Shown: piece by piece, positions 13,279 through 62,305 of the stretch | Layout: each line of letters starts with the position of its first letter | Numbering within the stretch: position 1 is the first letter of the stretch | NCBI GenBank assembly: GCA_964474425.1 | Contig: CAYYTC010000006.1 | Span: 20,503-84,502, forward strand | DNA from: an uncultured Acidobacteriota bacterium | Lineage (GTDB): Bacteria; Acidobacteriota; UBA6911 | DNA: 64,000 nucleotides | Direction: 5' to 3' | The notes under the pieces: generated by a model | Databases searched by the model: none | What the model was told of the DNA's origin: nothing | Seen by the model: only the letters and a program-made list of their open reading frames with translations | Made by a program: the position numbers and the translations under genes

Positions 13279-13738
13279 AAGCCGTCTGCTCCCCACATCC
13301 AGCCGGTCCTGCATTCTTCAACGAATTCCACCTTCCACCTTCTACCTTCCACCTTTTTCATCTCCCGACCTCCGTCTTCCATGTCCCGCCGTCCTTTTGC
13401 GGCCTATCATGAGCACAGCCCTTTGTCGGGTATTGATCCAATAATCCCTGATTTTTGCCTAACTTTATATGCCGCAACTATGCTAATATTGCATGGCTAT
13501 TTCAAAATGATAGGGCAACGAGGTTTTTGTTGAAAATACTGACGGGATTGAGCGTCTGGTGCATCCAATGGAACGATATTTGGCTGCGGCCAGGTAAGCG
13601 TTTAAACGGACAGAATTGAGGCGGCCGCAGCAAGCACTGGTGAATTCCGCAGTAAAGCTTGTGTAGTCACTACCGCAGATAAAAATCGGCATAGCCAGAC
13701 TGCAGCGGGTGTTCGACTCTGTCATCGGAGCATGAACC

Positions 13739-23659: not shown

Positions 23660-23677
23660 GGGATTCGGGAAACAACG

Positions 23678-24863: not shown

Positions 24864-24878
24864 AAGAGGATTCTCAAA

Positions 24879-26967: not shown

Positions 26968-27446
26968 TGCGCGAAGCGGCGGAGTTGGAAAAGGGACTGA
27001 AGCAGCGGCTGAAAGGCAGGGTGCTGCTGGTAGGCGCCGGCAACACGCTTCGCGGCGACGATGGGGCAGGTCCGGCGGTTGTGTCCCTGTTGGAAGGCAG
27101 AGTGACGGCGAGCCTGCTCGATGCCGGGGAAGCGCCGGAAAACTATTCGGGCAGGATCCTGGCTGAACAGCCGGATACGGTTGTCCTGATTGATGCGGCC
27201 GATTTTGGGGCGGCGCCGGGGGATCTGGCCATTCTGGAAGCGGAAGATATGGCGAAGGTGGGCGTGTCCACGCATCGGATCCCTTTGGAGGTTTTGTTCC
27301 GCTACATAAGGGAAAATAGCGGAGCGGACATGTTTGCGCTCGGGATACAGCCGGCCGGGATCGGATTTGGAGAATCCCTGAGCCCCGCCGTATCAAATTC
27401 GGTAAAGGCGCTGGCGGAGATCTTGCGGCGGCTGCTCCCGGCCTAA
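26964..27446 (+). CDS. hydrogenase maturation endopeptidase HycI-type
   Basis: LLVGAGNTLRGDDGAGP motif. ATGA overlap with hycG. Confidence 0.8.
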   Translation: MMREAAELEKGLKQRLKGRVLLVGAGNTLRGDDGAGPAVVSLLEGRVTASLLDAGEAPENYSGRILAEQPDTVVLIDAADFGAAPGDLAILEAEDMAKVGVSTHRIPLEVLFRYIRENSGADMFALGIQPAGIGFGESLSPAVSNSVKALAEILRRLLPA

Positions 27447-27476
27447 GAAAAAACTAGGAACGCAGATTTTTATTTT

Positions 27477-27508
27477 CAGCGTTCAACGTTCAAACGTTCA
27501 ACGTTTTT
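27477..27508 (+). repeat. tandem heptamer repeat (CGTTCAA)x3 followed by a T-run, in the hycI-hycB intergenic gap
   Basis: cagCGTTCAACGTTCAAACGTTCAACGTTTTTat. Contains self-complementary AACGTT cores, so small hairpins followed by TTTTT are possible. Confidence 0.5.
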
Positions 27509-28119: not shown

Positions 28120-30264
28120 ATGGAAGTGATGTCGGAAAAAGTGCTGACCGTATGTCCCTATTGCGGCGCCGGGTGCATGCTCAACCTGCTGGTTGACAAC
28201 GGCACGATTGTGGGAGCTGAACCTGCGCCCGGACGGACCAATCAAAGCGAGCTCTGCCTGAAGGGCTACTATGGCTGGGATTTTCTCAACGATACCAACC
28301 GTCTCACGCCGCGATTGAAGAAGCCCCTGATCCGCCGCCGCCGGGACGGCAAATTCGAGGAAGCCTCGTGGTTTGAGGCCATCGATTTTGCGGCCGGCAA
28401 GCTGCAGGAGATCAAGCACAAATACGGGCCGGATGCGATCATGCTCACCGGATCTGCCCGTGGACCGGGGAACGAAGCCAACTACGTCATGCAGAAGTTC
28501 GCCCGCGCGGTGATCGGCACAAACAATATCGATCACTGCGCCCGCGTCTGACATGCCCCTTCCGTGGCCGGGCTGGCCGCGACGCTGGGTAACGGGGCGA
28601 TGAGCAACTCCATCCCTGAAATCGAGGACACGCGGTGTGTCTTTATCTTCGGATATAACGCCGCCGATTCTCATCCGATTGTGGCGCGCCGCATCGTCAA
28701 TGCGAAACAGAAGGGCGCCAAGATCGTTGTGGTCGACCCGCGCATGACGGAGTCGGCGCGGATCGCTGACCTGTGGCTGCCGATACGCAACGGTACCAAC
28801 ATGGTCCTGGTGAATGCGTTCGGATATGTGCTGATCGAGGAAGGTCTGTATAACAGGGACTATGTCGCCAGCTATACCCAGGGCTTTGAGCAGTACAAGG
28901 CCATTGTTTCCAAATACACTCCCGAGTACGCGGAACAGGTTACGGGGATCCCCGCCAAAGATATACGCGAGGCGATGAGGATTTACGCGGCGGCTCCGAG
29001 CGCCTTCATCCTGTACGGCATGGGCGTGACGCACTATGGACAGGCGGTCGATGTCGTCAAGGGCCTGTCCGGCCTGGCGCTGCTTACGGGCAACTTCGGC
29101 CGGCCCAATGTCGGGATCGGCCCCGTGCGCGGCCAGAACAACGTCCAGGGAGCCTGCGATCACGGCGCGCTTCCCAACGTTTTCCCCGGATACCAGCCTG
29201 TTACGGACGAAGCCATACGCGCCAAGTTCGAAAAAGCCTGGGGCGTCTCCAGGCTGCCGGACAAGGTGGGTTGCACGCTGACGGATGTCCCCCACCTGGT
29301 TAAGGAAGGCAAGCTGAGGGCCTACTACATTTTCGGCGAGGACCTGGTTCAGACCGATCCCGATTCCGCTTCCCTCAGGGAAACCCTGAAGAGCATGGAG
29401 TTTGTTATTGTGCAGGATATCTTCATGAACAAGACCGCCCTGCATGCCGACGTGATTTTCCCCGCGACATCGTGGGGGGAGCACGAAGGGACCTATTCCA
29501 CGGCCGACCGGGGCTTCCAGCGCTTCCGCAAAGCCCTGGAGCCCAAGGGGGATGTGAAGACGGACTGGGAGATTATCTCCATGATGGCTACGGCCATGGG
29601 CTATCCCATGAAATACAGCAACACCGAGGAGATCTGGAACGAAATGCGTTCCCTGTGCCCGTCTTTTGCGGGTGTTACCTACGAAAGACTCGATAAGCTG
29701 GGCACCCTGCAATGGCCGTGCCCCAGCGAGGATCATCCCGGCACTCCCTATCTTTACGCGGGCAACAAATTCAATACGCCCGACGGCAAAGGACTGCTTT
29801 TTGCCGCGGAGTGGCGGCCGCCGCTCGAGCAGCCCGATAAGGACTACCCTCTGGTTTTATCGACCGTCCGCGAGGTCGGGCATTATTCCGCGCGCACCAT
29901 GACCGGCAACTGCGCCGCTCTGCAGGTCCTGGCGGATGAGCCGGGATATCTGCAGATCAGCGGCAAGGACGCCGAACGCCTGGGAATCCGGGACCAGGAA
30001 CTGGTCTGGATTTCGTCGCGCCGCGGCAAAGTGATCAGCCGGGCTCAGGTGACCGATCGCGTCAATATTGGCGCGGTATACATGACGTATCAGTGGTGGG
30101 TGGGCGCCTGCAACGAGCTGACCATTCATCACGTGGATCCGATATCCAAAACCCCGGAATACAAGTATTGCGCCGTGGCGGTGGAAAAGATAGACGACCA
30201 GGAGCAGGCCGAACGCTACGTTCAGGAGGAATACAGTCGTTTCAAAACCGCCATGAACATATAG
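28120..30264 (+). CDS. fdhF: formate dehydrogenase H (FdhF-type, molybdopterin), selenocysteine-containing; UGA at 28549-28551 is read as Sec
   Basis: N-terminal CPYCGAGC [4Fe-4S] motif. The two supplied ORFs (28120..28551 and 28564..30264) are in the same frame and separated only by TGA. Context NIDHCARV-U-HAPSVAGL matches the E. coli FdhF Sec140 region (...HCARV-U-HGPSVAGL...). Confidence 0.9.
28563..28581 (+). promoter_or_regulatory. candidate bacterial SECIS hairpin 11 nt downstream of the fdhF UGA
   Basis: CGUGGCC-GGGCU-GGCCGCG (7-bp stem including one G-U, 5-nt loop), placed as in known bacterial SECIS elements. Confidence 0.5.
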
Positions 30265-31993: not shown

Positions 31994-32524
31994 CTATTCC
32001 GGTAGCAATTCTTCCAGCCTGGGTCGGAGGCTTTCGGGGCAAAACCGCCTGATGAGGCTCCAATCCAGCTTATGTCGCTGCATTTCCACGATGGTTTGGG
32101 CGTCTTCGAGGTCCCGAGCCGAACCTGCCAGCAATTTTAACAGGATCACATCCTCGGGCGATGCGACCGGAATGGAGACATCCTCGATAGTGAGGATTCG
32201 AACCCGGGTCAACACGTCGGCAGGGGCGTTCCGGATTCCGATCAGGATGTCCACTTCGAACGGATCCGCGGTGGAGCCCATATCAATCCGGATCACCTCT
32301 GAAACCGGATCATCCCAATCACCGATCCGATGTTCAAATTGCATTCCCTCTTCATGCAACGCCTCTATCAGACGCCGGGAGTCGCCGGCGCAAAAGAGAT
32401 CCAGGTCGCGCGTAGCCCGTTCTTCTCCCCATGCCGCCACCGCATATCCCCCGATGACGGCATAGGGGATCTGACGTTTTACAAAAACCCTGTTGATTTG
32501 TCTAAATAGGCCGGAGAGGTTCAC
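31994..32524 (-). CDS. minimal nucleotidyltransferase-fold protein (Pol-beta superfamily)
   Basis: GGYAVAAWGEERATRDLDLF fits the hG[GS]x9-13DhD motif. 176 aa. Confidence 0.65.
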   Translation of the reverse strand: MNLSGLFRQINRVFVKRQIPYAVIGGYAVAAWGEERATRDLDLFCAGDSRRLIEALHEEGMQFEHRIGDWDDPVSEVIRIDMGSTADPFEVDILIGIRNAPADVLTRVRILTIEDVSIPVASPEDVILLKLLAGSARDLEDAQTIVEMQRHKLDWSLIRRFCPESLRPRLEELLPE

Positions 32525-32715
32525 TTTCGCCCTTTTTTAAGGATTTGCAGAATTTCCGTCTCGCCGAGGCCCTGGCTGCGCAAAGCCGCAATCCGCAGTT
32601 TGCGTGCTTCCGAGCTCAGCGTGAAGGCTGCCATCATTTTCTGGCCGGGGGACAATGTGTTTCGCGCCAGTCGCCGCTTTATTTTCGCTTCCAGCAGAAG
32701 TCCAGATCTGCCCAT
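32521..32715 (-). CDS. small hypothetical protein (64 aa), translationally coupled upstream partner of the nucleotidyltransferase
   Basis: 4-nt overlap (32521-32524) with the nucleotidyltransferase gene. Basic, helical. Confidence 0.4.
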   Translation of the reverse strand: MGRSGLLLEAKIKRRLARNTLSPGQKMMAAFTLSSEARKLRIAALRSQGLGETEILQILKKGRK

Positions 32716-33587
32716 CGGATGGAATCCTCTCCCGATATAAATAACAGGAATTGCGCAGCCTGTCTCTATATTTGTTGCAGGCTAATACGGCTGACATAGG
32801 GCTGCTTCATAGCTATAAAATTGATAGTAGTTTGCTTTTTCCGAAGGGGGAAGGAAAGAGCTTATCGGACAACTCCCGGAATTCTCGTGAACTGCATATA
32901 ATAAGGGGAAATATTCCGTCATCCAGGACTGCCATTTGCATCTTCCATTTGAGAAGTTCCGTGATCTGCCTCCTGCCTTCGGCTCATTTTTGTGCCCTGG
33001 CTTGCGCATACTTCTGCATTGGCGCAGATGCATGCCGAACTGCGTTCACGGCCGACAGCAACATCCTGACCATGGGCCGTGGCCGCCAGATTTAGTTCTA
33101 TTGGTAAATCCACGGCTCTGCCGGGAGACTCATAGAGTTTGACATCTCCGTATTTGGAAACGCTGAGATACGCTGACAAAAGCGCTGACAACCGATTTGT
33201 TCGGCGAGGGTCGGCGTTCAAGACCAGCGTAAATCCTCCAACCGCTTTGAGCGGTTCCAATCCTTCAAGCCTCCGGCTTTGCCGTAGGTGCCTGACATCT
33301 GTCTCTGATAAATCGGAGAAAAGTCTGCCCTATAAAAAGGCATGGAGTAAAATACATGAGCTGGCGGCGTGGCATGGCGTGTTGGATGGCCGTTCTCCCC
33401 ATAAAGATCCCTCCTAATGCAAATGCCGCGAGGAGGCCAGAAATATCGCTCGATCGCAGCCGTCGTCCATAGGCCGAACTATTGCGGATAGGGATTGTGG
33501 CGCGGCAACAGAAGTGTCCGAACGGTTTACTCATTGAAAAGCTGATGCGTGAAGCAGTGATGGAACTTACATAGAACGGAAATAAAC

Positions 33588-34463
33588 ATGTCAAATGTCA
33601 AATATTTCGCGCTTGCGGGGCAGGGAAATCCTGTCCATAAATCTATTGAACCTGAAAACGCGAGAGTCAACGCGGTATGGATGGACGGCAGCGTGGTGCA
33701 AGGCTGCATGTTTAATGAGATGTCCTGGTACATAAAGAGCTGCAGCGAACCCGGACTGATAAAACACAATTCCGACAAAGTAATGTTCTTTCTCGGAAGC
33801 AACGTTGAGGATCCTGAGAACCTGAACGCTACCGTAGAACTATGGATAGAGAACGACAAACTTACTCTCACAAAGACCTGCGCCGTTTTTGTCCCCGAAG
33901 GCGCCGCCCATGGAAATATTCAGGTTGGAAATCTAAAAAAGCCCTTTTTGAACTACGCCTGCCATCTCCGCACCAGCAATTATGAGGCCCTTCCAGCGAA
34001 GGCAAAGGCGGTTCCAGGAACTTATGCCGGCTACTATGTTGAAAGATATGAGCGTCCGGACGGGACATTGCCTTTGGCGCCTGAAGGCTTCCTCAAGTTT
34101 CTGGTATTTCTGGACGGCAAAAGGCTGAAAGGCGCGCCCTATGCCGAGGCGGTCTGGTTCCTTACCACGAATGACACGGGTCCCGCGCCGCACACTCATG
34201 AAAAATTTGACGAGTTTATAGGATTCATAGGATCGGATCCGGAACATCCTGACGCATTGAACGCTGAGATTGGTTTTTATGTAGAGGATGAAAAAATAAC
34301 CGTAACAAAGAGCTGTCTTGTCTATATCCCCAGAGGCCTCACCCACAGCCCGATATCTGTCCCGAAGCTTCAACGCCCAATAATCCATTTCTCCGGGGGC
34401 AACGGCGGAGACTATGCCAGAGGGGGCGGCAAGCACCGTGACGACAATTTGTTCAGGAAGTAG
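33588..34463 (+). CDS. bicupin-fold protein of unknown function
   Basis: Internal duplication, each half with cupin-like motifs. Half 1: H-NSD...PEGAAHGN. Half 2: HTHEKFDEFIGFIG (HxHxxxE) ...PRGLTHSP (PxGxxH). Lower GC than neighbours. Confidence 0.55.
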   Translation: MSNVKYFALAGQGNPVHKSIEPENARVNAVWMDGSVVQGCMFNEMSWYIKSCSEPGLIKHNSDKVMFFLGSNVEDPENLNATVELWIENDKLTLTKTCAVFVPEGAAHGNIQVGNLKKPFLNYACHLRTSNYEALPAKAKAVPGTYAGYYVERYERPDGTLPLAPEGFLKFLVFLDGKRLKGAPYAEAVWFLTTNDTGPAPHTHEKFDEFIGFIGSDPEHPDALNAEIGFYVEDEKITVTKSCLVYIPRGLTHSPISVPKLQRPIIHFSGGNGGDYARGGGKHRDDNLFRK

Positions 34464-34538
34464 CGGGATATCGGACCGCGGATGCCGGCAGCCGGAAATC
34501 AGGCTGAAGAAATCCGGATCGCCGTCTCCGCAGTTGCC

Positions 34539-36497
34539 CTAAGCAGGCTTGAAAAAGGTGACGGCCAGAGGCGGCAGCGTCAGGCTCAAGGAAAAGCTGC
34601 GGCCATGGGAGGGTATCGGCTCCGCGCTGACTCCGCCCAGGTTGCCCATCCCGCTGCCCCAATATTCTTTCCCGTCGCTGTTCAGGAGTTCCTTCCAGTA
34701 GCCTTCTTCCGGCACACCGAGACGGTATTGCAGGCGGGGGACCGGTGTGAAATTGCATACGACCAGGATTGTCTGACGGGGGCCGGTTCCCTTGCGCATG
34801 AAGGAGATCACACTGTTGTCCGAATCATTGCCGTCCACCCACTCGAATCCGGCAGGTTCGGTATCCAGGTGCATGGCGGCTTCGTCTTGGTAGAGCCGGT
34901 TGATGCTCTCAATCCAACTGCTGAGCCCTCGGTGGCGATCGTACTCCAGCAGGTTCCAATCCAGGCTGGAATTGTGGTCCCATTCCCGCCACTGCCCGAT
35001 CTCGGCCCCCATGAACAGCAGTTTTTTGCCCGGTTGCGCATACATGTATCCGATCAGCAGCCGCAGGTTGGCAAACTTCTGCCAGTTGTCGCCGGGCATT
35101 TTGGACAAGAGCGACCTTTTTCCATGAACGACCTCATCGTGGGAAAGAGGCAGTATGAAGTTCTCGGTGAAGGTATAGAGCGACCGGAAGGTAAGCTCAT
35201 TATGGCGATACTTGCGGTGGACAGGGTCGTGGCTGACATATTTAAGCGTATCGTGCATCCAGCCCATATCCCACTTTAGTCCGAAACCGAGGCCGCCCAC
35301 ATAGGGAGGTCTTGTCGCCATGGGCCAGGCAGTCGATTCCTCCGCAATCGTCTGAATATCCGGATGGGATTGGTACGCCTCCTGGTTGAACCGGCGGATA
35401 AAATCGACGGCTTCCAGGTTTTCTCTCCCTCCGTATCGGTTAGGAATCCATTCTCCTTCCTTGCGCGAATAGTCGAGGTACAGCATGGAAGCTACGGCGT
35501 CCACCCGCAAGCCGTCGATATGATATTTGTCCAGCCAGAACAGGCCGCTGCTGACAAGAAAGCTCCGGACCTCATTCCGTCCATAATTGAAAATGCACGT
35601 GTTCCAGTCCGGATGCATTCCCTGCTGCGGATCGGCATGCTCGTAAAGGTACGTTCCGTCGAAAAATGCAAGCCCATGCTCATCGTTGGGGAAATGCGAG
35701 GGGACCCAGTCCAGAATGACCCCGATGCCATGCTGATGCAGGCAATCGATGAGATACATGAAATCCTGTGGAGTGCCGTAGCGGCTGGTAGGCGCGAAAA
35801 AGGCTGTAACCTGGTACCCCCACGAGCCGAAAAACGGATGCTCCATGACGGGCAGGATTTCCACATGGGTGAAGCCCATCCGAGCCAGGTATTCGGGAAG
35901 GGCGGATGCCAGTTCCCGATAGGTCATGGAGCGGTGCTCTTCCCCGGGGATACGCCTCCAGGAACCCAGGTGCACTTCGTAAATGGCCATGGGAGCATGC
36001 AGCGAATTGCGGGCGCGCCTTTCGCGCATCCAGTCCTGGTCTCTCCATGAGTAGTCCAGATCCCAAACAATCGAGGCTGTCTCGGGCGGGACCTGGGAAT
36101 AGGACGCAAGCGGGTCGGCTTTGTCCACGACGTATCCGTGATGTTTGGTCGAAATGCGGAATTTGTACCGGGCACCGCGATCCACGCCGACCAGGAACCC
36201 TTCCCAGATCCCGGAGTCCTTCCTGGACCGGAGGGGGTGCCGCATACCGTTCCACTGGTTGAAATCCCCGATGGCGCTGACTCTTTCAGCGTTGGGCGCC
36301 CAGACCGCGAAATAAGTCCCGCGTTTTCCGGACAGGGTCGCGGGATGAGCCCCGAGCTTTTCATAAAGGCGGAAGTGCGATCCTTCGTTAAATAGATACA
36401 GATCGTCGTCGGTGATCAGGCTCACGCCATATTCCGGCCCGATGATGGTTTCAGCCATAAAACCCCCGATAGAATGACGAATGACGAAGTTAAGCAT
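34539..36497 (-). CDS. glgB: 1,4-alpha-glucan (glycogen) branching enzyme
   Basis: N-terminus LITDDDLYLFNEGSHFRLYEKLGAHP, GH13 catalytic core (DAVASMLY, GFGLKWDMGWMHD). Start may be at MAETII. Confidence 0.9.
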   Translation of the reverse strand: MLNFVIRHSIGGFMAETIIGPEYGVSLITDDDLYLFNEGSHFRLYEKLGAHPATLSGKRGTYFAVWAPNAERVSAIGDFNQWNGMRHPLRSRKDSGIWEGFLVGVDRGARYKFRISTKHHGYVVDKADPLASYSQVPPETASIVWDLDYSWRDQDWMRERRARNSLHAPMAIYEVHLGSWRRIPGEEHRSMTYRELASALPEYLARMGFTHVEILPVMEHPFFGSWGYQVTAFFAPTSRYGTPQDFMYLIDCLHQHGIGVILDWVPSHFPNDEHGLAFFDGTYLYEHADPQQGMHPDWNTCIFNYGRNEVRSFLVSSGLFWLDKYHIDGLRVDAVASMLYLDYSRKEGEWIPNRYGGRENLEAVDFIRRFNQEAYQSHPDIQTIAEESTAWPMATRPPYVGGLGFGLKWDMGWMHDTLKYVSHDPVHRKYRHNELTFRSLYTFTENFILPLSHDEVVHGKRSLLSKMPGDNWQKFANLRLLIGYMYAQPGKKLLFMGAEIGQWREWDHNSSLDWNLLEYDRHRGLSSWIESINRLYQDEAAMHLDTEPAGFEWVDGNDSDNSVISFMRKGTGPRQTILVVCNFTPVPRLQYRLGVPEEGYWKELLNSDGKEYWGSGMGNLGGVSAEPIPSHGRSFSLSLTLPPLAVTFFKPA

Positions 36498-36569
36498 ACC
36501 GCCCGCTTACCGGGAAGGCTGTTCCTATTTCGGATTCGCCCGTTCTCTGTCATTCGCAATTCGTAATTC

Positions 36570-37427
36570 TCAAGCCGCTCCCTGCTTCCGGAACCAGGCG
36601 AGCAGTCTTTTCCATCCGTCCGCTGCGTCTTCCTTGCGGTAGCTTGGGCGGATATCGGCAAAGAATCCATGGCCTGCCTCCGGATAGACATGGATCTCAG
36701 AGGGATTCCCGGCCTTCTTCAGCGCATCCCGCATACGTTCTACCGTGTCGAGCGGGATGCCCTGGTCTTTCCCGCCGTATAAGCCCAGGACCGGAGCCTT
36801 GAGCGATGCAACAATGTCGATTGGGTGCTTCGGCTGCAGCGGCGATGAATCGCCGACCAGACGCCCATACCATGCGACACCGGCTTTGACCTTCGGATTG
36901 TGGGCGGCATATAACCATGTGACCCGGCCGCCCCAGCAAAAGCCGGTCACACCCATCTTCGCGGTGTCCCCCTGGTTTTTGGATGCCCATTCGACAGCGG
37001 CATCCAGATCGGAAAGGACCTGCGCGTCCGGGGTCTGGGATACGATTTTAAAAACCTCGTCCATCTTTTCGATCTTCGAAACATCCCCGTGGCGGAAGAA
37101 GAAGTCCGGAGCAATGGCCAGATAGCCTTCCTTGGCAAAACGCCGGCAGATATCTTTGATGTGCTCCTGCAGCCCGAATATTTCACAGACAACCAGGGCC
37201 ACCGGAAAGGGGCCGTTGGAAGCCGGCCTCGAGCGGTAGGACGGAATTTCCCCGTTCGACACGGGAATTTTAACATCTCCGGATGTCAGTCCCTTTGCAT
37301 CCGTCGTGATATTCTGGCCGGCCACAGGCGCTGCGGCCAATGCGATTCCCGCGGATACCGTGGCGGCAACAAATTCCCTTCGAGTCAGTTCGGTTTCAGA
37401 CGATTGATCCCTTAGATTCTCGTGCAT
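36570..37427 (-). CDS. dienelactone hydrolase-family alpha/beta hydrolase with twin-arginine signal
   Basis: TAT motif [20 protein letters not shown]. The ORF-track start at 37493 is an upstream extension. Confidence 0.7.
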
Positions 37428-47551: not shown

Positions 47552-48748
47552 TCAAGGATTCGTGAGGTAAATTCGGGGTACCCGCGCGGCGATCGCGCAA
47601 AGGATTTCGTAGGGAATGGTATCCAGAGCTTCCGCCCAATCCTGGGCCGTGGTGCGGCAGTGGTCGCTCGATCCCAGCAGAATCACCTCGTCCCCTTCCC
47701 GGGCGTCGGGGAGGTCTGTCAGGTCCACCGCGATCATGTCCATGGAGACTGCGCCGATAACCTCGGCGCATCGGTCACGGACAATGATGCGGGTCCGGCC
47801 GCTGAGGCGCCGATGGAATCCATCCGCATACCCGACCGGCAATATGCCGACCCTCGTTTGCCTGGACGCGGTGAACCTTCTTCCATATCCCAGGGATTCT
47901 CCCGCCGCAATCGAGCGAATGGGGCCGATCGCGGTTTTAAGGGTCAATACGGGGCGCAGTGTAACGGGAGAGCGGCGCGAGTCCGGCGAGTAACCATAGA
48001 GAGCGATTCCGGAACGCGCGTTCCACTGCCGGAAGCACTCGTGATATAGAATACCTGCGCTGTTCGCAAAATGAATGGTCCCCGGATTCAGATGGGCGTC
48101 CCTGACTGCGGAGAGGGCGCGGTCGAACCGGCGCTTCTGCTCCATGGTGAAAGACGTATCCGTCTCATCCGCGCTGGACAGGTGGGAAAAGACTCCTTCG
48201 ATGCGGATGCGGCGCGCGCGCTGCACCGCGGTCAGCAAAGGATCCAATGCATCCCATCGGGCTCCCAGACGAGCCATTCCGGTGTCCACTTTAATATGGA
48301 CGGCAATGGAAACGGCCATCTCGGCGCCCATGGAGTCCAGGCAGCACACGCTTTCGGGTGTATCGACGGAAAGGGTGAGGCGGTTCTGCACGGCCGGTTT
48401 CTCCAGCCCCTGCCAGGATGTCCCGAGCACCAGGACCTCTTGAGTAATTCCTGCCTGGCGCAATGCTACGCCTTCATCGACCACGCCCACCGCAAACGCC
48501 GTGGCTCCTGCGGATGCCAGCGCCCGCGCGACAGGAATCATCCCATGACCGTAGGCGTCGGCCTTGACGACCGGAAAAATTCTCGGGTTGCCGCCGCCGG
48601 AAGGCGATAAAAGGGAAGAGAGCGCCTTGAAATTTTCCGCCAGGGCATTCAGATCAACCTCCGCCCATGTCGGCCTCCCTTCAGGTCTCATCCCGAAGTT
48701 GCTGCCAGCCCTTTCGCACTTCATCGTCTTACCGATCGCCTCTTTCAT
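47552..48748 (-). CDS. alr: alanine racemase
   Basis: PLP-lysine context VVKADAYGHG, C-terminal racemase domain. True start may be the internal MRPEGRPTWAEVDL. Confidence 0.85.
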   Translation of the reverse strand: MKEAIGKTMKCERAGSNFGMRPEGRPTWAEVDLNALAENFKALSSLLSPSGGGNPRIFPVVKADAYGHGMIPVARALASAGATAFAVGVVDEGVALRQAGITQEVLVLGTSWQGLEKPAVQNRLTLSVDTPESVCCLDSMGAEMAVSIAVHIKVDTGMARLGARWDALDPLLTAVQRARRIRIEGVFSHLSSADETDTSFTMEQKRRFDRALSAVRDAHLNPGTIHFANSAGILYHECFRQWNARSGIALYGYSPDSRRSPVTLRPVLTLKTAIGPIRSIAAGESLGYGRRFTASRQTRVGILPVGYADGFHRRLSGRTRIIVRDRCAEVIGAVSMDMIAVDLTDLPDAREGDEVILLGSSDHCRTTAQDWAEALDTIPYEILCAIAARVPRIYLTNP

Positions 48749-48763
48749 GTTCGGCCTGTCCCT

Positions 48764-48805
48764 GACCGCTAACCGCTAACCGCTAACCGCTAACCACTAA
48801 CCACT
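48764..48805 (+). repeat. tandem heptamer repeat (CCGCTAA)x4 (CCACTAA)x2 in the alr-dnaB intergenic gap
   Basis: gaCCGCTAACCGCTAACCGCTAACCGCTAACCACTAACCACTAAg. Confidence 0.6.
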
Positions 48806-50150
48806 AAGTTCCTTCCTGGTACAGGCTGTCGAATTTCGTAAACTGTTTGCTGAAGGCAAGCTGTATGGATCCCGTGGGCCCGTTTCTCTGTTTTCCTATG
48901 ATCAGTTCGGCGAGCCCGTTGTTTTCCTCCGTGGGATTGAACATATCCTCGCGATAAATGAACAATACAACATCGGCGTCCTGCTCGATGGAACCGGATT
49001 CCCGGAGATCCGAAAGCTGCGGACGGCGGTGCTCGCCGGTCCTGGATTCGACGGCGCGGCTGAGCTGGGAGACCGCGATGACGGGAACGTTGAGGTCTTT
49101 GGCAATTGCCTTCAAGCCCCTGGAAATCTGGGAAATTTCCTGCGTGCGGTTTTCGTAGCGCTGATTGGAGCCCGACATGAGCTGCAGGTAATCGACAATT
49201 AAAAGGTCCATTCCGTGTTCCAGGCTCAAACGCCGGGCTTTCGTGCGCAGTTCGGATACGGTAACACTGGCGGTATCGTCGATAAAAATTTTGGTGTCGG
49301 ACAGGTCGCCGGAAGCGTGGCTCAGCCTGTTCCAGTCCTCCTTGTTCAGGAAGCCGGTGTTGACCCGGTGGGCGTCAATCCTCGCCTCGCTGCACAGAAG
49401 CCGCTTGACCAGCTGTTCCTTGCTCATCTCCAGGCTGAAGATCCCGACGGTTTTGTGCTTTCTGATGGCGACATGTTCGGCGATATTGAGACAGAGACTG
49501 GTTTTTCCCAGTCCGGGCCGTGCGGCAACGATGATGAGGTCCGACGGGTGTAAGCCGGCGGTCATGCGGTCCAGGTCGACAAATCCGGTTTCCAGGCCCG
49601 TTACGGGGGCTTTGCGATTGGACAACTCCTCGATCTGCTTGAAGACGTCGCTGACGATGGGCGTGATGGAGGAAAAGCCCGTGTGGAACTGCTGGCTGGC
49701 TATGTCGAAGATCGTCTTTTCGATGTGCTGGAGGATATCTTCGGCAGGCTCCTCGTCCTGATAGCTGCGGGCCATGATCTCGCCCGAGATCTGGATCAGT
49801 CGGCGCAGAGTGGACTTGGATCTGACAATCTGCGCGTAGTACTCGATATTGAGCGCCCGGGGCAGATAGTCGGTAAGGCTTGCCAGGTAGGCGGCTCCGC
49901 CGATGCTTTCGAGCTCGTTCGCGCGCTGGAGCTCCTCTTTGAGAGTGATAAGGTCGATCGGCCGCGAATTGTTCATGAGCTGGAGCATTCGATCGAAGAT
50001 TCTCCGATGACTCTCCAGGTAAAAGTCCTGCGACTTGATTATTTCAAAGACGGGAATCGCGGCCTTATCGTCCAGCAGGATGGCCCCCAGTATAGAGCGC
50101 TCCGCTTCCAGGTTGTGGGGAAGCGTTTTTTCCAGGCTGATATCGGCCAT
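48804..50150 (-). CDS. dnaB: replicative DNA helicase
   Basis: Walker A GARPGLGKTS and DnaB N-terminus MADISLEKTLPHNLEAERSILGAI. The ORF-track start at 50222 (TTG) translates the heptamer repeats (SIVNRQSSIVNRQ) and is rejected. Confidence 0.9.
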   Translation of the reverse strand: MADISLEKTLPHNLEAERSILGAILLDDKAAIPVFEIIKSQDFYLESHRRIFDRMLQLMNNSRPIDLITLKEELQRANELESIGGAAYLASLTDYLPRALNIEYYAQIVRSKSTLRRLIQISGEIMARSYQDEEPAEDILQHIEKTIFDIASQQFHTGFSSITPIVSDVFKQIEELSNRKAPVTGLETGFVDLDRMTAGLHPSDLIIVAARPGLGKTSLCLNIAEHVAIRKHKTVGIFSLEMSKEQLVKRLLCSEARIDAHRVNTGFLNKEDWNRLSHASGDLSDTKIFIDDTASVTVSELRTKARRLSLEHGMDLLIVDYLQLMSGSNQRYENRTQEISQISRGLKAIAKDLNVPVIAVSQLSRAVESRTGEHRRPQLSDLRESGSIEQDADVVLFIYREDMFNPTEENNGLAELIIGKQRNGPTGSIQLAFSKQFTKFDSLYQEGT

Positions 50151-50151
50151 T

Positions 50152-50240
50152 TTGATTGACGATTGACGATTGACGATTGACGATTTAGGACTGGCGGAAT
50201 CATTTTTAATCGTCAATCGCAAAACGTCAATCGCAAATCA
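50152..50240 (+). repeat. palindromic tandem-heptamer element: (GATTGAC)x4, spacer, then inverted AATCGTC/AATCGCA units
   Basis: tGATTGACGATTGACGATTGACGATTGACGATTt ... aATCGTCAATCGCAAAACGTCAATCGCAAATCa. The arms are reverse complements and can form a long stem-loop. Confidence 0.65.
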
Positions 50241-50348
50241 CAGGGTGTTTTCGGTTCCACATGAACCTTGTCGGCTAGAAGGACCACTCCAGGCCCGTCG
50301 GTAAGCGCTAATTGCCGGGCTGACCTATGCGCTTCAGCATGGAGATTT

Positions 50349-50400
50349 TCGATTGCATTAGCATCCTTCAAATCGTCAATCGAAAATCGCAAATCGTCAA
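50349..50400 (+). repeat. second copy of the AATCGNN heptamer array directly after the rplI stop
   Basis: tcGATTGCattagcatccttcaAATCGTCAATCGAAAATCGCAAATCGTCAAT. Confidence 0.6.
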
Positions 50401-50859
50401 TTAGGTGGCGGCTTCCGGTTCCGGTTCCACGATGACTCTGATGGGCACCGTGACTTCGCGGTGCAGCCGGATCGGCACCTGGTATTCTCCGAGCGTCTTT
50501 ATGGGCTCTTCCAGCTGTATCTTGCGCTTATCGATATCGATCTTGTGGTTGACCAGGAAGTCCGCGATATCCAGCGCAGTCACGGACCCGTAAAGCGATC
50601 CCTCTTCTCCGGATTTCTTCTGGATTGTCACCGTAAGCTTAACGATGTCGCGGGCCAGAAGAGTGGCGGATTCCTTCTCCCGGTGGTCGCGGCGCGCCTG
50701 GGAGATCTTTTCCACCTCGGCTATCTTAATGTTGCCCGGAGTGGCCTCAATCGCGAGATTTCTGGGGATCAGATAATTGCGCCCGTAGCCGGGGGCAACC
50801 TTTACGACATCGCCGGTTTTGCCCAGTTTCTCTACGTCCTGCTTTAAAATGACCTTCAT
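50401..50859 (-). CDS. rplI: 50S ribosomal protein L9
   Basis: MKVILKQDVEKLGKTGDVVKVAPGYGRNYLIPRNLA. Confidence 0.9.
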   Translation of the reverse strand: MKVILKQDVEKLGKTGDVVKVAPGYGRNYLIPRNLAIEATPGNIKIAEVEKISQARRDHREKESATLLARDIVKLTVTIQKKSGEEGSLYGSVTALDIADFLVNHKIDIDKRKIQLEEPIKTLGEYQVPIRLHREVTVPIRVIVEPEPEAAT

Positions 50860-50883: not shown

Positions 50884-51117
50884 TCAATCCGCTACGAATG
50901 GGAGAATCGCCATGTGTCTGGCGCGCTTTATGGCTTCCGCGAGCAACCGCTGATGCGTCGAGCAGACGCCGCTGATTCTCCGCGGCAGTATCTTCCCTCT
51001 TTCTGGAATAAAATGGCCGAGGAGTTTCCCGTCTTTAAAGTCGATATATGTAATTTTTTCCGCGCAAAACTTGCACACTCTCTTGCGCCGCACACTGAAT
51101 CGTCTTGGACCTGGCAT
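50884..51117 (-). CDS. rpsR: 30S ribosomal protein S18
   Basis: [43 protein letters not shown]. Confidence 0.9.
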
Positions 51118-51177
51118 AGTTCTTAGCCTTTCTACTTTGTGGGACCGGATTTTCGAATGCGGTCCCCGATGAAGACC

Positions 51178-51576
51178 CTACAGATCGGATAAGGACGCCT
51201 CTTCCGCGTCGGTACCCCGGGAGATATCCGGCGCCTGTTTGGGCACCTTTTTTTGTCTTGTCGCTTTGATCTTTTCGGAACGTTTGAGATCCTCGTCGAT
51301 TCGAACCGAAATAAAGCGGATGATATAATCGGTCACCCGGAAGCGGCGCTCCAGTTCCGCGATGGCGCTGCCATCCCCCTCAATGGATAGCACCACGTAA
51401 TAGCCCTCTCGGAATCTCTTGATCTTGTAAGCCAGGGATTTTTTCCCCCAGTTGTCGACCTTGACCACCTTGCCGTTCTTGCTCTCAACCACTGTCTGGA
51501 TATGGTTGATAAAGCCGTCCAGCTCTTCACTGGTTAGCGTGGGGGCGGCAACAAAGACCACTTCGTAATTTCTCAC
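51178..51576 (-). CDS. rpsF: 30S ribosomal protein S6
   Basis: MRNYEVVFVAAPTL...RFREGYYVVL. Confidence 0.9.
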   Translation of the reverse strand: MRNYEVVFVAAPTLTSEELDGFINHIQTVVESKNGKVVKVDNWGKKSLAYKIKRFREGYYVVLSIEGDGSAIAELERRFRVTDYIIRFISVRIDEDLKRSEKIKATRQKKVPKQAPDISRGTDAEEASLSDL

Positions 51577-53992: not shown

Positions 53993-54067
53993 TGGCTGGG
54001 GCGGGAGGATTCGAACCTCCGAATGCAGGTTCCAAAGACCTGTGTCTTACCGCTTGACGACGCCCCA
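53993..54067 (-). tRNA. tRNA-Gln (anticodon UUG)
   Basis: Minus-strand cloverleaf: acceptor UGGGGCG/CGCCCCA (U1-A72), anticodon stem CAGGU/ACCUG with loop CUUUGGA (anticodon UUG), T-arm GGAGG-UUCGAAU-CCUCC, discriminator G73, encoded CCA. Typical position upstream of prs. Confidence 0.85.
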
Positions 54068-59182: not shown

Positions 59183-59470
59183 CTATGGATCAATAAATGA
59201 GACCTGGCAATCGATCAGGATGCCTTCGAGAATATTTTCGGCCTCACGGACGAATTGCTGGGTGACGCGTTCCAGGACCGTATGGTCGGCGCCCACCGTG
59301 ACCGCGGCCAGCTTCGCGCGCTGCCACAAGTCCTGGTAATCGACTTCCGCGATCGAGAAATTCGATCTCGCGCGCAGACGGTCCTGAGCCTTCCGCAGCA
59401 CCATCCGCTTTTCTTTAAGCGACTGGGAATAGGGCAGGAAAAGCTCCAAGGTGCAGTAGGCTATCGGCAT
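59183..59470 (-). CDS. DUF503 (YlxP-like) protein
   Basis: Conserved position between infB and rbfA. The ORF-track N-terminal extension translates the heptamer repeats and is rejected; start taken at MPIAYC. Confidence 0.7.
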   Translation of the reverse strand: MPIAYCTLELFLPYSQSLKEKRMVLRKAQDRLRARSNFSIAEVDYQDLWQRAKLAAVTVGADHTVLERVTQQFVREAENILEGILIDCQVSFIDP

Positions 59471-59542
59471 TTCACATTTACGATTTACGATTGACGATTG
59501 CAGCCTGATTCCAATCGTCAATCGTAAATTGTCAATCGTCAA
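59471..59542 (+). repeat. palindromic tandem-heptamer element between infB and the DUF503 gene
   Basis: TTTACGATTTACGATTGACGATTG-cagcctgattc-CAATCGTCAATCGTAAATTGTCAATCGTCAAT. About 22-bp near-perfect stem built from ACGATTG/CAATCGT units. Confidence 0.65.
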
Positions 59543-62305
59543 TTAGAGAGAGGTGGGCTGGACTTTTTCAATGACATAAGCCTCGATGATGTCGCCCACC
59601 TTCACATCGGAAAAATGCTCGAACCCGATGCCGCACTCGAATCCCGATTTCACTTCGGAGACATCGTCCTTGAAACGGCGCAGCGAGCCGATTTTGCCTT
59701 CGTGGATTACGGCATTATCCCGGAGCAGCCGGGCTTCGGAGTTGCGTCGAATAACGCCATCGAGCACATAGGAGCCCGCGATAAATCCGAACTTGGGTAC
59801 TTTGAACGTGTCGCGGACTTCGGCACGGCCCACATATTTCTCGTGGGTTGTGTATTCCAGCATGCCGATCATCGCCGCGCGGATATCGTTGGACAGGTTG
59901 TATATGATGGTATAAAGCCTGATTTCGACGCCTTCCGCGTCCGCCAGTTCCTGGGCTTTGCGCTCGGGCCTGACGTTGAACCCGATGATGATGGCATTCG
60001 AGGCGGATGCAAGCAGGACATCGGTCTCGGTTACTGCGCCTGCTCCGCTGTGCAGTATCTTTACCTTGGCTTTTTCGGTGCTGAGCTTGTTCAGCATGTC
60101 GGTGATGACTTCCACCGAACCCTGTACGTCGCCTTTGACGATGAGCGGAAGCTCTTTGACCGTTCCTTCCTTCATCTGCTCGTAGAGAGCCTGCAGGGAA
60201 AGCCGCGATGTCTTGCGCAGCGATTGCTCCCGTTCCTTCGCCTGGCGGTATTCGGCCACCTGCCGGGCCTTGTTGGCGTCCTCGAACACCTGGAGGGTGT
60301 CTCCCGCAAAAGGCAGGTCCTGAAGCCCCTGTATTTCCACGGGCATCGAAGGTCCTGCGGTGATTACGTTGCTGCCGCGGTCGTTGATAAGAGCGCGCAC
60401 GCGCCCGTGCACCGATCCGGCGACGAAAGAATCTCCCAGCTCCAGCGTCCCGTTTTGAACAAGGACGGTCGCTACGCATCCGCGCCCCTTATCCACCTTG
60501 GCTTCCAGAACGACGCCGGAGGCCAGCCGCCGCGGATTTGCTTTGAGGTCTTTCATGTCCGCCACCAGGAGAATCATCTCGAGCAGCAGATCGATATTGG
60601 AGCGCTGTTTAGCAGAAACCGGGACGGTCACTATGTCTCCGCCCCAGTCTTCGGCCAGGAGACCCTGGTCCGAGAGCGCCTGTTTGACCCGATCGATCTG
60701 GGCTCCGGCCTTATCGATCTTGTTGATGGCCGCGATGATGGGCACGTTGGCCGCTTTGGCATGGTGTATGGCTTCGATGGTCTGCGGCATCACCCCGTCA
60801 TCGGCGGCGACCACCAGCACAACGATATCGGTGGCCTGGGCGCCGCGGGCGCGCATCATCGTGAAAGCTTCATGGCCCGGAGTATCCAGGAAAACGATGC
60901 TCCGGCCGCGGATATCTACCTGATAGGCGCCGATGTGCTGGGTGATTCCCCCTTCTTCGGTCGCCGTGACGTTTGTTTCGCGAATCGCGTCCAGCAGGGA
61001 TGTCTTGCCGTGATCCACGTGGCCCATGATAGTAACGACGGGCGGTCTGGCTACATGATCTTCGGGATTGTCTGCCACTTCCTGTTTAGCCTCGGCTTCC
61101 TGTTCAAAACTGATGACATCAGCCCGGAATCCGAACTCGGCGCAGACTTCCTTCGCCGCATCCAGATCGAGTGCCTGATTGATGGAAGCGAGAACTCCTT
61201 TTGAAATTAGCTTTTGAATGATGTATTTGGACTTGATATCCATCTTCTCCGCCAGTTCCTTGATTGTGACCCCCTCCGTGATGGATATCGGTCTGAAATC
61301 TTCCGGGGATGCCGGCGGCCGCGGCAGGTCGACCACTTTGGGCGCCCTTTCAATAATTTCGGGCTTCCCAGTCTTTTTCCTCCGGACAAGTCTCGACGGG
61401 GCAAAAGCCCTCTGCGCAGTCGGCCTGTCCTGAAGCCCCCTCAGGATGCGGTCTGTGATTTCAGGGGTCACGACTCTTTCCGTGCTTGTCCGCATTAGGA
61501 TTTTCGTCTTCGCTTTGGGAACGACTATTTTCTTGGAGACGATTCCAGGATGCGCCGCCGGCTCCGCTGCCTTCGCGGGAGGCTGTTGTGCCGCCTCAGC
61601 CGGTCGGGCTGCTTCAGGCGCCGGCTTCGCAATTTGCGGAGGTTCGAGTATCGGGGCTGCCGGAGGCGTTTCAGGCTCAGCCGCAGGACCCGAAATTTCG
61701 GGCGGAGCCTCGATCTCGACCGCCGCTTCCTCTGCCGGCGGCAGGACGGCGGGCGGAACAGCAGGCTCCGCCTCGACGGGTTCTGCGGGCAGGATTTCAG
61801 CCAGGGCCGGCACCTCCGCCGGTTTTTCAGCCGCTTTGGCTGCAACCTGATCTACAAGCCCGGCAGACTCGCGGTCATAATGTTTGCGTCCCTTGCGAGG
61901 CGCGAGGGAGATTTTCGGGGCAGGTTCCTCGGGCTTTACCTCTACGACCTTCTCGACCTTGACCTTGGCCGCCTTTTTCGCCTTTTGAGGGACGGCGGGG
62001 GCGACGGGTTGGGGTTCGGCAGCCTTTGCGGCGGCCTTCTTCGGGGGTTTCTTATCCGCCTTCTTGTTTGCCTCGGCTTCCTTTTTCTTTTCCGCTTCCA
62101 GCGCCTTGGCTTCTTCGGCTTCCCTTTGCGAGAGGATTTTTTTGCGGATGGTCTCGGCGAAATTCACGTCAATCGTCGCAGCGGGCGATACCACATACAG
62201 ACCCAGGCGCTTCAGTTCAGCGAGCACTACCTGGTTCTTTACTGAACATTCTGTCGCCAGTTCCGCGACCGTAATCTTATCCATTTGCGCAAAGACCTCT
62301 GCCAA
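59543..62305 (-). CDS. infB: translation initiation factor IF-2
   Basis: 920 aa. Low-complexity Ala/Pro/Glu/Lys N-region, G-domain (GHVDHGKTSLLD, DTPGH, NKIDK). Confidence 0.95.
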   Translation of the reverse strand: MAEVFAQMDKITVAELATECSVKNQVVLAELKRLGLYVVSPAATIDVNFAETIRKKILSQREAEEAKALEAEKKKEAEANKKADKKPPKKAAAKAAEPQPVAPAVPQKAKKAAKVKVEKVVEVKPEEPAPKISLAPRKGRKHYDRESAGLVDQVAAKAAEKPAEVPALAEILPAEPVEAEPAVPPAVLPPAEEAAVEIEAPPEISGPAAEPETPPAAPILEPPQIAKPAPEAARPAEAAQQPPAKAAEPAAHPGIVSKKIVVPKAKTKILMRTSTERVVTPEITDRILRGLQDRPTAQRAFAPSRLVRRKKTGKPEIIERAPKVVDLPRPPASPEDFRPISITEGVTIKELAEKMDIKSKYIIQKLISKGVLASINQALDLDAAKEVCAEFGFRADVISFEQEAEAKQEVADNPEDHVARPPVVTIMGHVDHGKTSLLDAIRETNVTATEEGGITQHIGAYQVDIRGRSIVFLDTPGHEAFTMMRARGAQATDIVVLVVAADDGVMPQTIEAIHHAKAANVPIIAAINKIDKAGAQIDRVKQALSDQGLLAEDWGGDIVTVPVSAKQRSNIDLLLEMILLVADMKDLKANPRRLASGVVLEAKVDKGRGCVATVLVQNGTLELGDSFVAGSVHGRVRALINDRGSNVITAGPSMPVEIQGLQDLPFAGDTLQVFEDANKARQVAEYRQAKEREQSLRKTSRLSLQALYEQMKEGTVKELPLIVKGDVQGSVEVITDMLNKLSTEKAKVKILHSGAGAVTETDVLLASASNAIIIGFNVRPERKAQELADAEGVEIRLYTIIYNLSNDIRAAMIGMLEYTTHEKYVGRAEVRDTFKVPKFGFIAGSYVLDGVIRRNSEARLLRDNAVIHEGKIGSLRRFKDDVSEVKSGFECGIGFEHFSDVKVGDIIEAYVIEKVQPTSL

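Follow-up and report, generated by a model that had tools for sequence, protein, structure and literature searches.

Heptamer arrays at operon junctions

The window analysed here is a 64-kb stretch (64,000 nucleotides) of contig CAYYTC010000006.1, from an uncultured Acidobacteriota bacterium, and all positions given without another source are those of the window. Its minus strand carries genes in the order nusA-infB-DUF503-rbfA-truB ... prs-rplY-pth-rpsF-rpsR-rplI-dnaB-alr, and intercistronic spacers of these essential-gene operons are occupied by tandem arrays of 7-nt units (heptamers), some of them paired with an inverted copy. An initial annotation, made from the sequence alone, had placed four such arrays close to essential genes, around dnaB, rplI and DUF503, and took them for one family of palindromic elements. 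Tandem arrays were located with Tandem Repeats Finder (TRF) and paired arms with an inverted-repeat search (Table 1). Arrays are present at all four sites, and their placement beside essential genes holds.

The window contains more of them. Three period-7 arrays (13326-13355, 27475-27505 and 33588-33603) and a third inverted pair, between the genes for dienelactone hydrolase (DLH) and GlgB, had gone unmentioned. Altogether about 11 arrays of at least five unit types occur in the 64 kb, every one of them intergenic by open reading frame (ORF) calls and Pfam matches. Two kinds coexist, namely single-orientation arrays of unrelated units (TTAGCGG, TTCCACC and TTCAACG) and inverted pairs with arms of 14 to 33 nt (rplI-dnaB, infB-DUF503 and DLH-glgB). 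In the inverted-repeat search the arrays at 48765, 13326 and 27475 remained without a partner, so that the array after dnaB is not palindromic. Since single-orientation arrays of unrelated units occur beside inverted pairs, the idea of one palindromic family has to be abandoned. Where both orientations are present, the proposed stems of 20 bp or more are borne out, with arms of 25 to 33 nt at rplI-dnaB and infB-DUF503.

The period of seven stands out in the window. At lag 7, four arrays have at least 18 of 21 self-matches, against none at lags 4 to 6 and 8 to 12 and none in 100 dinucleotide-preserving shuffles. Exact self-match runs number six at lag 7 and zero to three at each other lag from 4 to 15. 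A CRISPR array, with repeats of 23 to 50 nt and unique spacers of similar length, is ruled out by the contiguous 7-nt units, in agreement with the initial annotation.

Table 1. Heptamer arrays and associated features of the window, grouped by junction
Position	Strand	Feature	Evidence	Context
50368-50401	-	Distal array UUGACGA UUUGCGA UUUUCGA UUGACGA UUUG	TRF (50370-50396); inverted pair (50370-50401 with 50155-50186, 32 nt, 88%)	Begins inside rplI stop UAA (50403-50401)
50344-50356	-	Short inverted partner of distal array, GCAAUCGAAAAUC	Read directly from sequence	
50207-50240	-	Proximal 5' arm GAUUUGC GAUUGAC GUUUUGC GAUUGAC GAUU	TRF (50211-50237, read as period 14); inverted pair (50208-50240 with 50153-50185, 33 nt, 85% complementary)	22-nt loop
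50186-50206	-	Loop of dnaB-proximal hairpin, motif AAAT..TYCGCCRSTC	Alignment	Motif kept in all 10 related sequences
50154-50185	-	3' arm (AAUCGUC)4.6	TRF (period 7, 4.6 copies, 100%); inverted pairs	Ends 3 nt before dnaB ATG (50150-50148); no Shine-Dalgarno
48765-48807	-	Single-orientation array (UUAGUGG)2(UUAGCGG)4	TRF (period 7, 6.1 copies, 97%)	dnaB stop UAG (48806-48804) in first unit; stops 16 nt short of alr ATG (48748)
59512-59545	-	5' arm, infB stop UAA (59545-59543) then UUGACGA UUGACAA UUUACGA UUGACGA UUGG	TRF (59512-59543); inverted pair (59512-59536 with 59476-59500)	
59471-59500	-	3' arm GCAAUCGUC AAUCGUA AAUCGUA AAUGUGAA	TRF (59476-59499); inverted pair (25 nt, 92%)	Abuts DUF503 ATG (59470-59468)
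36549-36573	-	5' arm, second dialect, DLH stop UGA then GAAUUAC GAAUUGC GAAUGAC	TRF (36552-36573); inverted pair (36549-36562 with 36472-36485, 14 nt, 86%); Pfam	
36472-36488	-	3' arm (UUCGUCA)2.4	TRF; Pfam	13 nt upstream of glgB ATG (36458); G-run in Shine-Dalgarno position between arm and ATG
27475-27505	+	Single array (TTCAACG)4.3	TRF; Pfam	Between hycI and Fe-S/fdhH genes, upstream of normal Shine-Dalgarno (AGGTG)
13326-13355	.	Single array (TTCCACC)4.3	TRF; Pfam	In 538-nt spacer, downstream of terminator-like hairpin that follows papain-like protease gene
33588-33603	+	Marginal array (ATGTCAA)2.3	TRF	Overlaps candidate start codon

Hairpins between stop and start codons

Read along the transcript strand, the rplI-dnaB spacer has the form UAA-(UUGACGA-type x4)-...-(GAUUKRC x4)-loop-(AAUCGUC x4.6)-AAA-AUG and the infB-DUF503 spacer the form UAA-(UUGACGA-type x4)-loop-(AAUCGUM x3)-AAUGUGAA-AUG. 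At DLH-glgB it is UGA-(GAAUKRC x3)-60 nt-(UUCGUCA x2.4)-13 nt-AUG. The fold predicted for rplI-dnaB reaches -88.9 kcal/mol (z -3.9 against shuffles) and that for infB-DUF503 -28.5 kcal/mol (z -4.0). The distal array of the rplI-dnaB spacer may pair locally (50344-50356) or over a longer range (50155-50186), and in the minimum-energy fold the array adjacent to the rplI stop pairs with the array adjacent to the dnaB start.

The loop motif AAAT..TYCGCCRSTC of the dnaB-proximal hairpin is constant in the 10 related sequences although the arms switch units. It may be bound by a protein, or belong to a promoter or leader of dnaB.

Conserved architecture and changing units in relatives

Homologues of DnaB at 83 to 97% identity are metagenomic, several of them named 'Acidobacteria bacterium'; a look-up for a protein identical to DnaB returned none. 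The related sequences compared with the window were seven contigs (L121-L124 and L205-L207) with dnaB nucleotide divergence of 15 to 25%, and two near-identical strains (L208 and L209; DnaB 97%). Synteny is kept throughout. The comparison with close relatives suggested in the initial annotation gives the same spacer architecture at rplI-dnaB in all nine related contigs, namely stop codon, 5' arm, loop, 3' arm and ATG. The infB-DUF503 spacer has the same build in all six contigs that cover it. In the relatives the 5' arm consists of three to five heptamers starting directly at the stop codon, and is followed by the loop and the inverted heptamers; the 3' arm usually ends 0 to 8 nt before the ATG, a few spacers having longer unpaired tails. 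In the clade the pairs thus fill whole spacers, from the rplI, infB or TPR-gene stop to a few bases before the dnaB, DUF503 or ispE ATG. Short spacers are predicted to form stems of 16 to 39 pairs (-19 to -44 kcal/mol), and in most of the spacers folded (15, from the window and seven relatives) the predicted stem begins -2 to +2 nt from the stop.

What changes is the unit, in what we call dialects. The window and L123 use GATTGAC/GTCAATC; L121, L124, L206 and L207 use GAATTAC or GAATGAC, L207 having its own GC-rich variant on both arms; and L122 and L205 are mixed. Across 15 to 25% dnaB nucleotide divergence the arms remain 85 to 100% complementary, so pairing is kept and sequence is not. Formal covariation counting on an alignment was dropped because repeat arms pair in several registers, and a matrix of chimeric duplexes was used in its place. 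Arm duplexes from the same genome average -30.9 kcal/mol against -22.9 kcal/mol for chimeras across genomes, and blocks in the matrix correspond to dialects. In L208 the 5' arm variants GAUUUGC/GAUUGAC/GAUUUUC/GAUUGAC are mirrored in register by the 3' arm (GUCAAUC/GUAAAUC/...).

Both junctions use one dialect in six of the six genomes in which both are covered. In a neighbour-joining tree of the single gene dnaB, without support values, GATTGAC falls into two separate branches; therefore at least two dialect switches, each at both loci, appear to have occurred. The arrays also grow, shrink and homogenise fast. The array after dnaB counts six units in the window, four in L208 and one in L209, with DnaB 97% identical among these strains, and in the other relatives this spacer holds different period-7 units that start within the stop codon.

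The downstream genes of the two conserved junctions lack a Shine-Dalgarno (SD) sequence. The 18 nt that lie upstream of dnaB and of DUF503 give 0 kcal/mol of anti-SD pairing in five relatives, against mostly -4 to -11 kcal/mol for neighbouring genes (prs, rplY, rpsF, rplI and others). The sequence before the ATG is usually A-rich, and is C-rich ahead of dnaB in L124 and L207. Distant bacteria with adjacent rplI and dnaB, taken from a background set of metagenomic bacteria matching Prs at 52 to 64% identity, have no heptamer hairpin in that spacer.

A lineage-specific hairpin occurs in L123 (4973-5042), in a 68-nt spacer between a TPR gene and ispE. It is written in that genome's own dialect, as TAA + ATTGACG ATTAACG GTTGTAG ATTG + AAAA + (AATCGTC)x4 + ATG. 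In five other genomes (the window and four relatives) the two genes overlap at stop and start (GTGA), so the element must have entered, or been copied into, a translationally coupled junction. It replaces the first approximately eight ispE codons and brings a new TAA and a new ATG. On this comparison the L123 hairpin reads as a recent gain that recreated the stop-hairpin-start geometry.

More period-7 arrays with GATT-containing units (GATTCGA and GGATTYC) were seen in L123 (13430-13490), L124 (12135-12172) and L206 (11359-11382), that of L123 being an inverted pair. They sit in spacers that are array-free in sister genomes, which shows rapid gain and loss.

Distribution beyond the clade

An exact scan for (GATTGAC)3 across one genome per species (596 Gb) returned at least 119 loci, where by our arithmetic about 0.3 chance matches are expected for a 21-mer. 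They include Chloroflexota, Bacteroidota, Acidobacteriota, Planctomycetota, Verrucomicrobiota, Nitrospirota, Gemmatimonadota and some Proteobacteria, and about a fifth are inverted pairs, among the matches listed. The repeats are therefore not lineage-specific, which had been considered possible, nor are they confined to the dnaB locus, since more arrays occur in the window, in its relatives and in many phyla.

Among the matches listed, together with the window, 134 clusters have a single orientation; of the inverted pairs, 25 are convergent and 10 divergent. By crude longest-ORF calls, inverted pairs among the matches listed lie in 15 co-directional, six convergent and three divergent spacers. 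There they are often flush with the stop and start codons of long ORFs and, in convergent spacers, with both stops. Single arrays among the cross-phylum matches listed have no overall sense or antisense preference; of those that closely precede a start, 27 have GUCAAUC in sense orientation and 12 the opposite (p = 0.02). The bias in orientation seen after stops (26:9) was an artefact of the TGA inside GATTGAC and disappeared once this was controlled.

Period-7 arrays exceed period-8 arrays in every set counted. Per 100 kb, there are 41.7 against 5.7 at the loci ascertained by GATTGAC, 15.7 against 0.5 in the acidobacterial clade (204 kb of clade sequence) and 7.6 against 0.5 in an unrelated metagenome control. 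Exact 21-mer scans of viral contigs gave 31 loci for (GATTGAC)3 and 47 for (GAATTAC)3, with 4 and 20 for permuted heptamers, 2 for an 8-mer and 44 for a 6-mer (many of these in giant-virus contigs). Heptamers are thus generally favoured over octamers, with at most a mild preference for GATTGAC and GAATTAC. The idea that GATTGAC alone is preferred was rejected, as a control reaches 20 loci and GAATTAC 47 against its 31. A GATT/AATC core common to the units was also considered: among unrelated units, AATC ranks first of the 4-mers (38 of 160), but AT-rich 4-mers are frequent in general.

Very long GTCAATC arrays (130 to 350 bp) were seen in some metagenome-assembled genomes of Bacteroidota (Bacteroidales, Ignavibacteria and Saprospiraceae; L004 1842-2192, L036 6614-6884 and L007 5512-5639). 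They far exceed the three- to six-unit arrays typical of the acidobacterial clade.

Relation to known repeats

From their sequence, the elements can be assigned to the intergenic heptanucleotide simple-sequence repeats (SSRs), a class already described (PMC4692102, PMC4679880), because their features match those published: head-to-tail 7-nt units beyond chance, a bias to intergenic positions, few divergent spacers and copy-number polymorphism between strains. The phylum and the units are new; the class is known. What is noteworthy is that palindromic heptamer arrays run from stop to start before SD-less essential genes, with an architecture that is conserved and arms and loci that co-vary.

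The closest precedents are the GGGAATC arrays of Xanthomonas, about 185 in each of two genomes (Rehm et al. 2015, PMC4692102). About 90% are intergenic; they lie close to where the upstream ORF ends and seldom separate divergent genes; 70 to 75 convergent pairs are able to form stem-loops, the arrays are transcribed and they occupy the same gene junctions in two species. Experiments found no regulatory role for them (PMC4692102). The acidobacterial elements resemble these and the GGGGAYT repeats of Nostoc in having tandem 7-nt units, mostly in about four copies, with no overall strand bias (PMC4692102) and in often having convergent inverted pairs close to the upstream ORF's 3' end. They differ in their host, in the exact stop-to-start fit of pairs before SD-less genes, in two interchangeable dialects and in units without GGG tracts (GATTGAC, GAATTAC, TTAGCGG, TTCAACG and TTCCACC); as these units are not G-rich, no G-quadruplex or i-motif is possible. 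A Nostoc preprint reports that heptamer arrays affect expression of recF and recO, and infers an unidentified heptamer-binding partner (10.1101/2022.06.06.494920).

TAACTGA arrays of marine Beggiatoaceae, Cyanobacteria and Bacteroidetes abut SD-less starts, including those of ribosomal-protein operons. Two to six copies lie over the expected ribosome-binding site, a role in translation has been proposed and the unit is common to unrelated phyla (MacGregor 2015, PMC4679880). Position directly upstream of SD-less starts and a unit common to unrelated phyla are found here as well. Those repeats are, however, almost exclusively forward direct repeats (169 direct sets against one inverted), whereas here inverted pairs are conspicuous and the unit differs.

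According to these two papers (PMC4679880, PMC4692102), Mrazek (2007) found heptamers to be the most over-represented class of long SSRs and suggested that 7 nt matches the polymerase footprint; such repeats are attributed there to polymerase slippage. As described there, long SSRs, the cyanobacterial short tandemly repeated repetitive (STRR) sequences and the heptanucleotides of Calothrix PCC7601 also have intergenic heptanucleotide units. Neither units nor cyanobacterial host are shared with STRR sequences, and palindromic pairing lies outside their definition. STRR units are CCCCAGT, TTGGTCA and CAACAGT.

The initial annotation had offered comparison with repetitive extragenic palindromic (REP) sequences, bacterial interspersed mosaic elements (BIMEs) and a transcript-level attenuator. 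The REP comparison holds for placement, as the elements are intergenic and separate co-directional or convergent genes and seldom divergent ones. With REPs, BIMEs and REPINs (REP doublets forming hairpins) they share their abundance, their extragenic position, inside operons or between convergent genes, and inverted doublets that form hairpins; a genome-specific consensus, concerted evolution and the appearance of new copies are further points in common. The comparison fails for the features that define REPs and their associated tyrosine transposases (RAYTs). A REP is a single imperfect palindrome of 20 to 40 nt with a conserved head, whereas the arms here are tandem heptamers that are not themselves palindromic, some arrays have no hairpin and copy number changes by slippage. 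No RAYT/Y1 transposase was found among the 40 window ORFs scanned against Pfam.

Other candidates were set aside. A miniature inverted-repeat transposable element (MITE) was rejected, there being no target-site duplication at any junction in 10 genomes and the arms abutting stop and start codons. A terminator scan was negative at the arrays, whose AT-rich stems are followed by A-rich sequence and an ATG, so they are not intrinsic terminators. Rfam at the gathering threshold returned only two tRNAs in the whole window, with no hit at E ≤ 5 in 48600-50500. A full-text search of the searchable literature found no paper with GATTGAC repeat strings.

Two systems are alike in one respect each. Stable mRNA structure just after a stop codon, termed the ribosome termination structure (RTS), insulates against re-initiation (Chemla et al. 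2020, PMC7518266), and the elements here likewise have a stable predicted structure starting right downstream of the stop. RTS are defined by folding energy rather than repeats and were shown experimentally only in a synthetic operon of Escherichia coli (PMC7518266). The stems described here, in contrast, begin 0 to 2 nt past the stop and also cover the start region of the next gene. The omega protein of inc18 plasmids is a ribbon-helix-helix dimer that reads 7-bp heptads cooperatively, in direct or inverted order. Its operators thus share with the present arrays 7-bp units in both orders, but they are contiguous heptads in plasmid promoters, and here no protein partner, promoter context or sequence match has been established.

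Possible function and competing explanations

The explanation we favour, giving it about an even chance, is that the cell tolerates the repeats, or has co-opted them, as hairpins between cistrons by which translation of the next gene is gated; as DNA, we infer, the repeats are REP-like and semi-selfish. Arrays would originate by slipped-strand mispairing, and template switching, conversion or copy-and-paste from others in the genome would generate the inverted copies and keep them alike. Once transcribed into polycistronic mRNA, a pair would fold into a hairpin of 20 to 32 bp whose base brings the upstream stop and the downstream AUG together and buries the SD-less initiation region. A ribosome terminating upstream would open the initial units of the 5' arm and so free the last ones beside the AUG; synthesis of the low-abundance proteins DnaB and DUF503 would proceed slowly, gated by the ribosomes upstream. 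This geometry would suit a highly expressed upstream gene (L9 or IF2) followed by a low-copy protein, and elements would persist at operon junctions where it is compatible with, or useful for, downstream expression. Stems of 20 bp or more are plausible substrates of RNase III, and cleavage may precede downstream translation. Alternatively, the hairpin might insulate against re-initiation in the manner of an RTS (PMC7518266).

The attenuating or insulating role proposed in the initial annotation therefore fits the anatomy, while folding and loop polarity lend it no strand-specific support, and several observations weigh against a translational gate. Sense and antisense strands fold equally well (41 G-U pairs in sense, 52 in antisense), and loop composition shows no polarity of transcription across phyla (69 A, 77 T); such symmetry fits a strand-symmetric process at the DNA level better than selection on one RNA. 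The predicted DLH-glgB hairpin is no better than shuffles (z -1.5). In other phyla, about a quarter of the inverted pairs separate convergent genes, which cannot be coupled, and gene calls at the cross-phylum loci are crude longest ORFs. Flush positions of arrays at stops are to some extent trivial, as GATTGAC has a TGA in each frame. Dialect co-switching amounts to about two independent events, read from the single-gene neighbour-joining tree without support values. Confidence in translational gating is only moderate because nothing marks the transcript strand as the selected one, and a strand-symmetric process at the DNA level, whether neutral, mobile or protein-bound, is a serious rival.

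In its neutral form, this rival sees the arrays as debris of slippage and template switching in tolerant spacers, with no function in RNA or DNA and persisting because precise deletion is hard. We regard this as possible, if doubtful. Rapid change of copy number, the many unrelated units, the occurrence of arrays in all types of spacer including convergent ones and the lack of a strand-specific signature are what it would lead one to expect. In viral contigs, permuted control heptamers also form arrays (at 4 and 20 loci, against 31), and the outcome of the Xanthomonas experiments points the same way (PMC4692102). It accounts less well for arms that stay 85 to 100% complementary, with unit variants mirrored, across the dnaB divergence of the clade, for an architecture kept in every relative examined at two junctions with SD-less downstream genes, and for the under-use of divergent (promoter) spacers and the orientation bias upstream of starts.

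Rather unlikely, in our estimate, is a non-autonomous mobile element of REPIN or MITE type, in which the inverted pair is propagated by an enzyme acting in trans (for example, a RAYT-like HUH/Y1 enzyme on single-stranded DNA hairpins) and the dialect marks the active family. The dialect is genome-specific and common to unlinked loci, L123 gained a copy in its own dialect inside a formerly overlapping gene junction, and the placement is REP-like. Convergent pairs outnumber divergent ones 25:10 among the matches listed and the window, as expected for an element with defined ends, and REPIN biology, as outlined in PMC3116915 and PMC3337134, offers a model. Yet no transposase was found among the window ORFs, and none of the junctions shows a target-site duplication. 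Tandem heptamers make up the arms, which are not imperfect palindromes of 20 to 40 nt and have no conserved GTAG-type head, and neither single-orientation arrays nor copy-number slippage needs a transposase. Every relative examined has an element in the same spacers, which argues for long residence rather than repeated insertion.

A bolder and distinctly unlikely version is that these are self-homogenising elements of many phyla whose dialect is set by a co-evolving trans factor, either a hairpin-specific transposase or a heptad-reading protein. They would insert at stop/start junctions, supply new codons and rewire coupling in essential operons, and the 7-nt period would be the footprint of the factor and not a product of slippage.

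The arrays could also be iterated binding sites on double-stranded DNA for a heptad-reading protein that acts as operator-bound regulator, roadblock or nucleoid organiser, its specificity co-evolving with the dialect. The strand-symmetric features, the direct and inverted arrangements, the genome-wide dialects and the binding partner that the Nostoc preprint infers to act at the recO and recF promoters (10.1101/2022.06.06.494920) are in keeping with this. We nevertheless think it improbable, as many unrelated units occur in one genome, divergent promoter spacers are avoided, loops of 10 to 60 bp split the arms in a way that contiguous operator heptads are not split, copy number varies freely between strains and no candidate protein was identified.

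An internal dnaB promoter, with the TTGAC of GATTGAC as -35 element and the 3' arm as unstructured SD-less leader, is more improbable again. One promoter-like site (TTGACG-17-AAAAAT, minus strand 50230..50202) exists, and L124 and L207 carry TTGACA just upstream of the conserved loop motif. The promoter scan, however, was not above shuffles (two found, 1.6 expected), the GAATTAC/GAATGAC dialect and other units without TTGAC hold the same positions, and arrays also occur in convergent spacers.

Gene starts and assembly

As the initial annotation had noticed, the arrays mislead ORF calls. The longest ORFs traverse them at dnaB (48804-50222, 472 amino acids) and DUF503 (59183-59542, 119 amino acids), whereas starts at the ATG at 50150 and at 59470 give a DnaB of 448 amino acids (445 to 450 in relatives) and a DUF503 protein of 95 amino acids with a Pfam match to DUF503. 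An independent Logan unitig is identical to the window over 926 bp, which excludes a collapse artefact; it ends within the (GATTGAC) array, indicating that short-read assemblies break at arrays. That the elements are a collapsed low-complexity misassembly, or are translated as N-terminal extensions of DnaB and DUF503, can practically be discounted despite the ORFs running through them, since the unitig, the two strains from other samples (L208 and L209) and seven further relatives have the same sequence or architecture, DnaB homologues are only 445 to 450 amino acids long and a 7-nt period cannot maintain a reading frame.

Other features of the window

A short GC-rich hairpin (CAUCGGGGACCG...CGGUCCC) directly follows the rpsF stop (51110-51180, minus strand). 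It is ordinary and not built of heptamers, and is apparently kept in most of L121-L124, L206 and L207, with apparently compensatory changes as judged by eye.

A gene for a formate-dehydrogenase-H-like molybdopterin oxidoreductase (28120-30264, plus strand) has an in-frame TGA (28549-28551) in the motif CARV-U-HAPSVA. By its context this TGA is almost certainly a selenocysteine codon and not the mark of a pseudogene. The gene and that of an Fe-S protein adjoin a cluster resembling group-4 [NiFe]-hydrogenase/formate-hydrogenlyase (17629-27446, plus strand), which encodes three Mrp/NuoL-like antiporter subunits, a fused 30-kDa/49-kDa large subunit, a NuoK-like protein and a HycI protease. Upstream of it lie an [FeFe]-hydrogenase-like gene (14336-15724) and one for aldehyde:ferredoxin oxidoreductase (16022-17563). 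Together, the hydrogenase/formate cluster and these two genes suggest an anaerobic, fermentative acidobacterium.

The region 31994-34500 has a lower GC content (0.52 against approximately 0.58 to 0.60), a gene for an AbiEii-type nucleotidyltransferase toxin (31994-32524) and ORFs without Pfam match; it may be a small acquired island. The two tRNA genes, the sole Rfam hits at the gathering threshold, are at 255-327 (plus strand) and 53996-54067 (minus strand).

Significance

In practical terms, the arrays produce false N-terminal extensions in gene calls, as for dnaB and DUF503, and fragment short-read assemblies. Heptamers are the most over-represented long simple repeats in bacteria, and their period of seven and their role are still unexplained after more than 30 years. 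The acidobacterial clade is a clean comparative system in which to approach them, with rplI-dnaB occupied in nine relatives and infB-DUF503 in all six that cover the spacer, two interchangeable dialects that co-vary between arms and loci, downstream genes without SD sequences and one recent gain. It makes slippage debris, mobile hairpin, protein-binding heptads and translational gate directly testable against each other.

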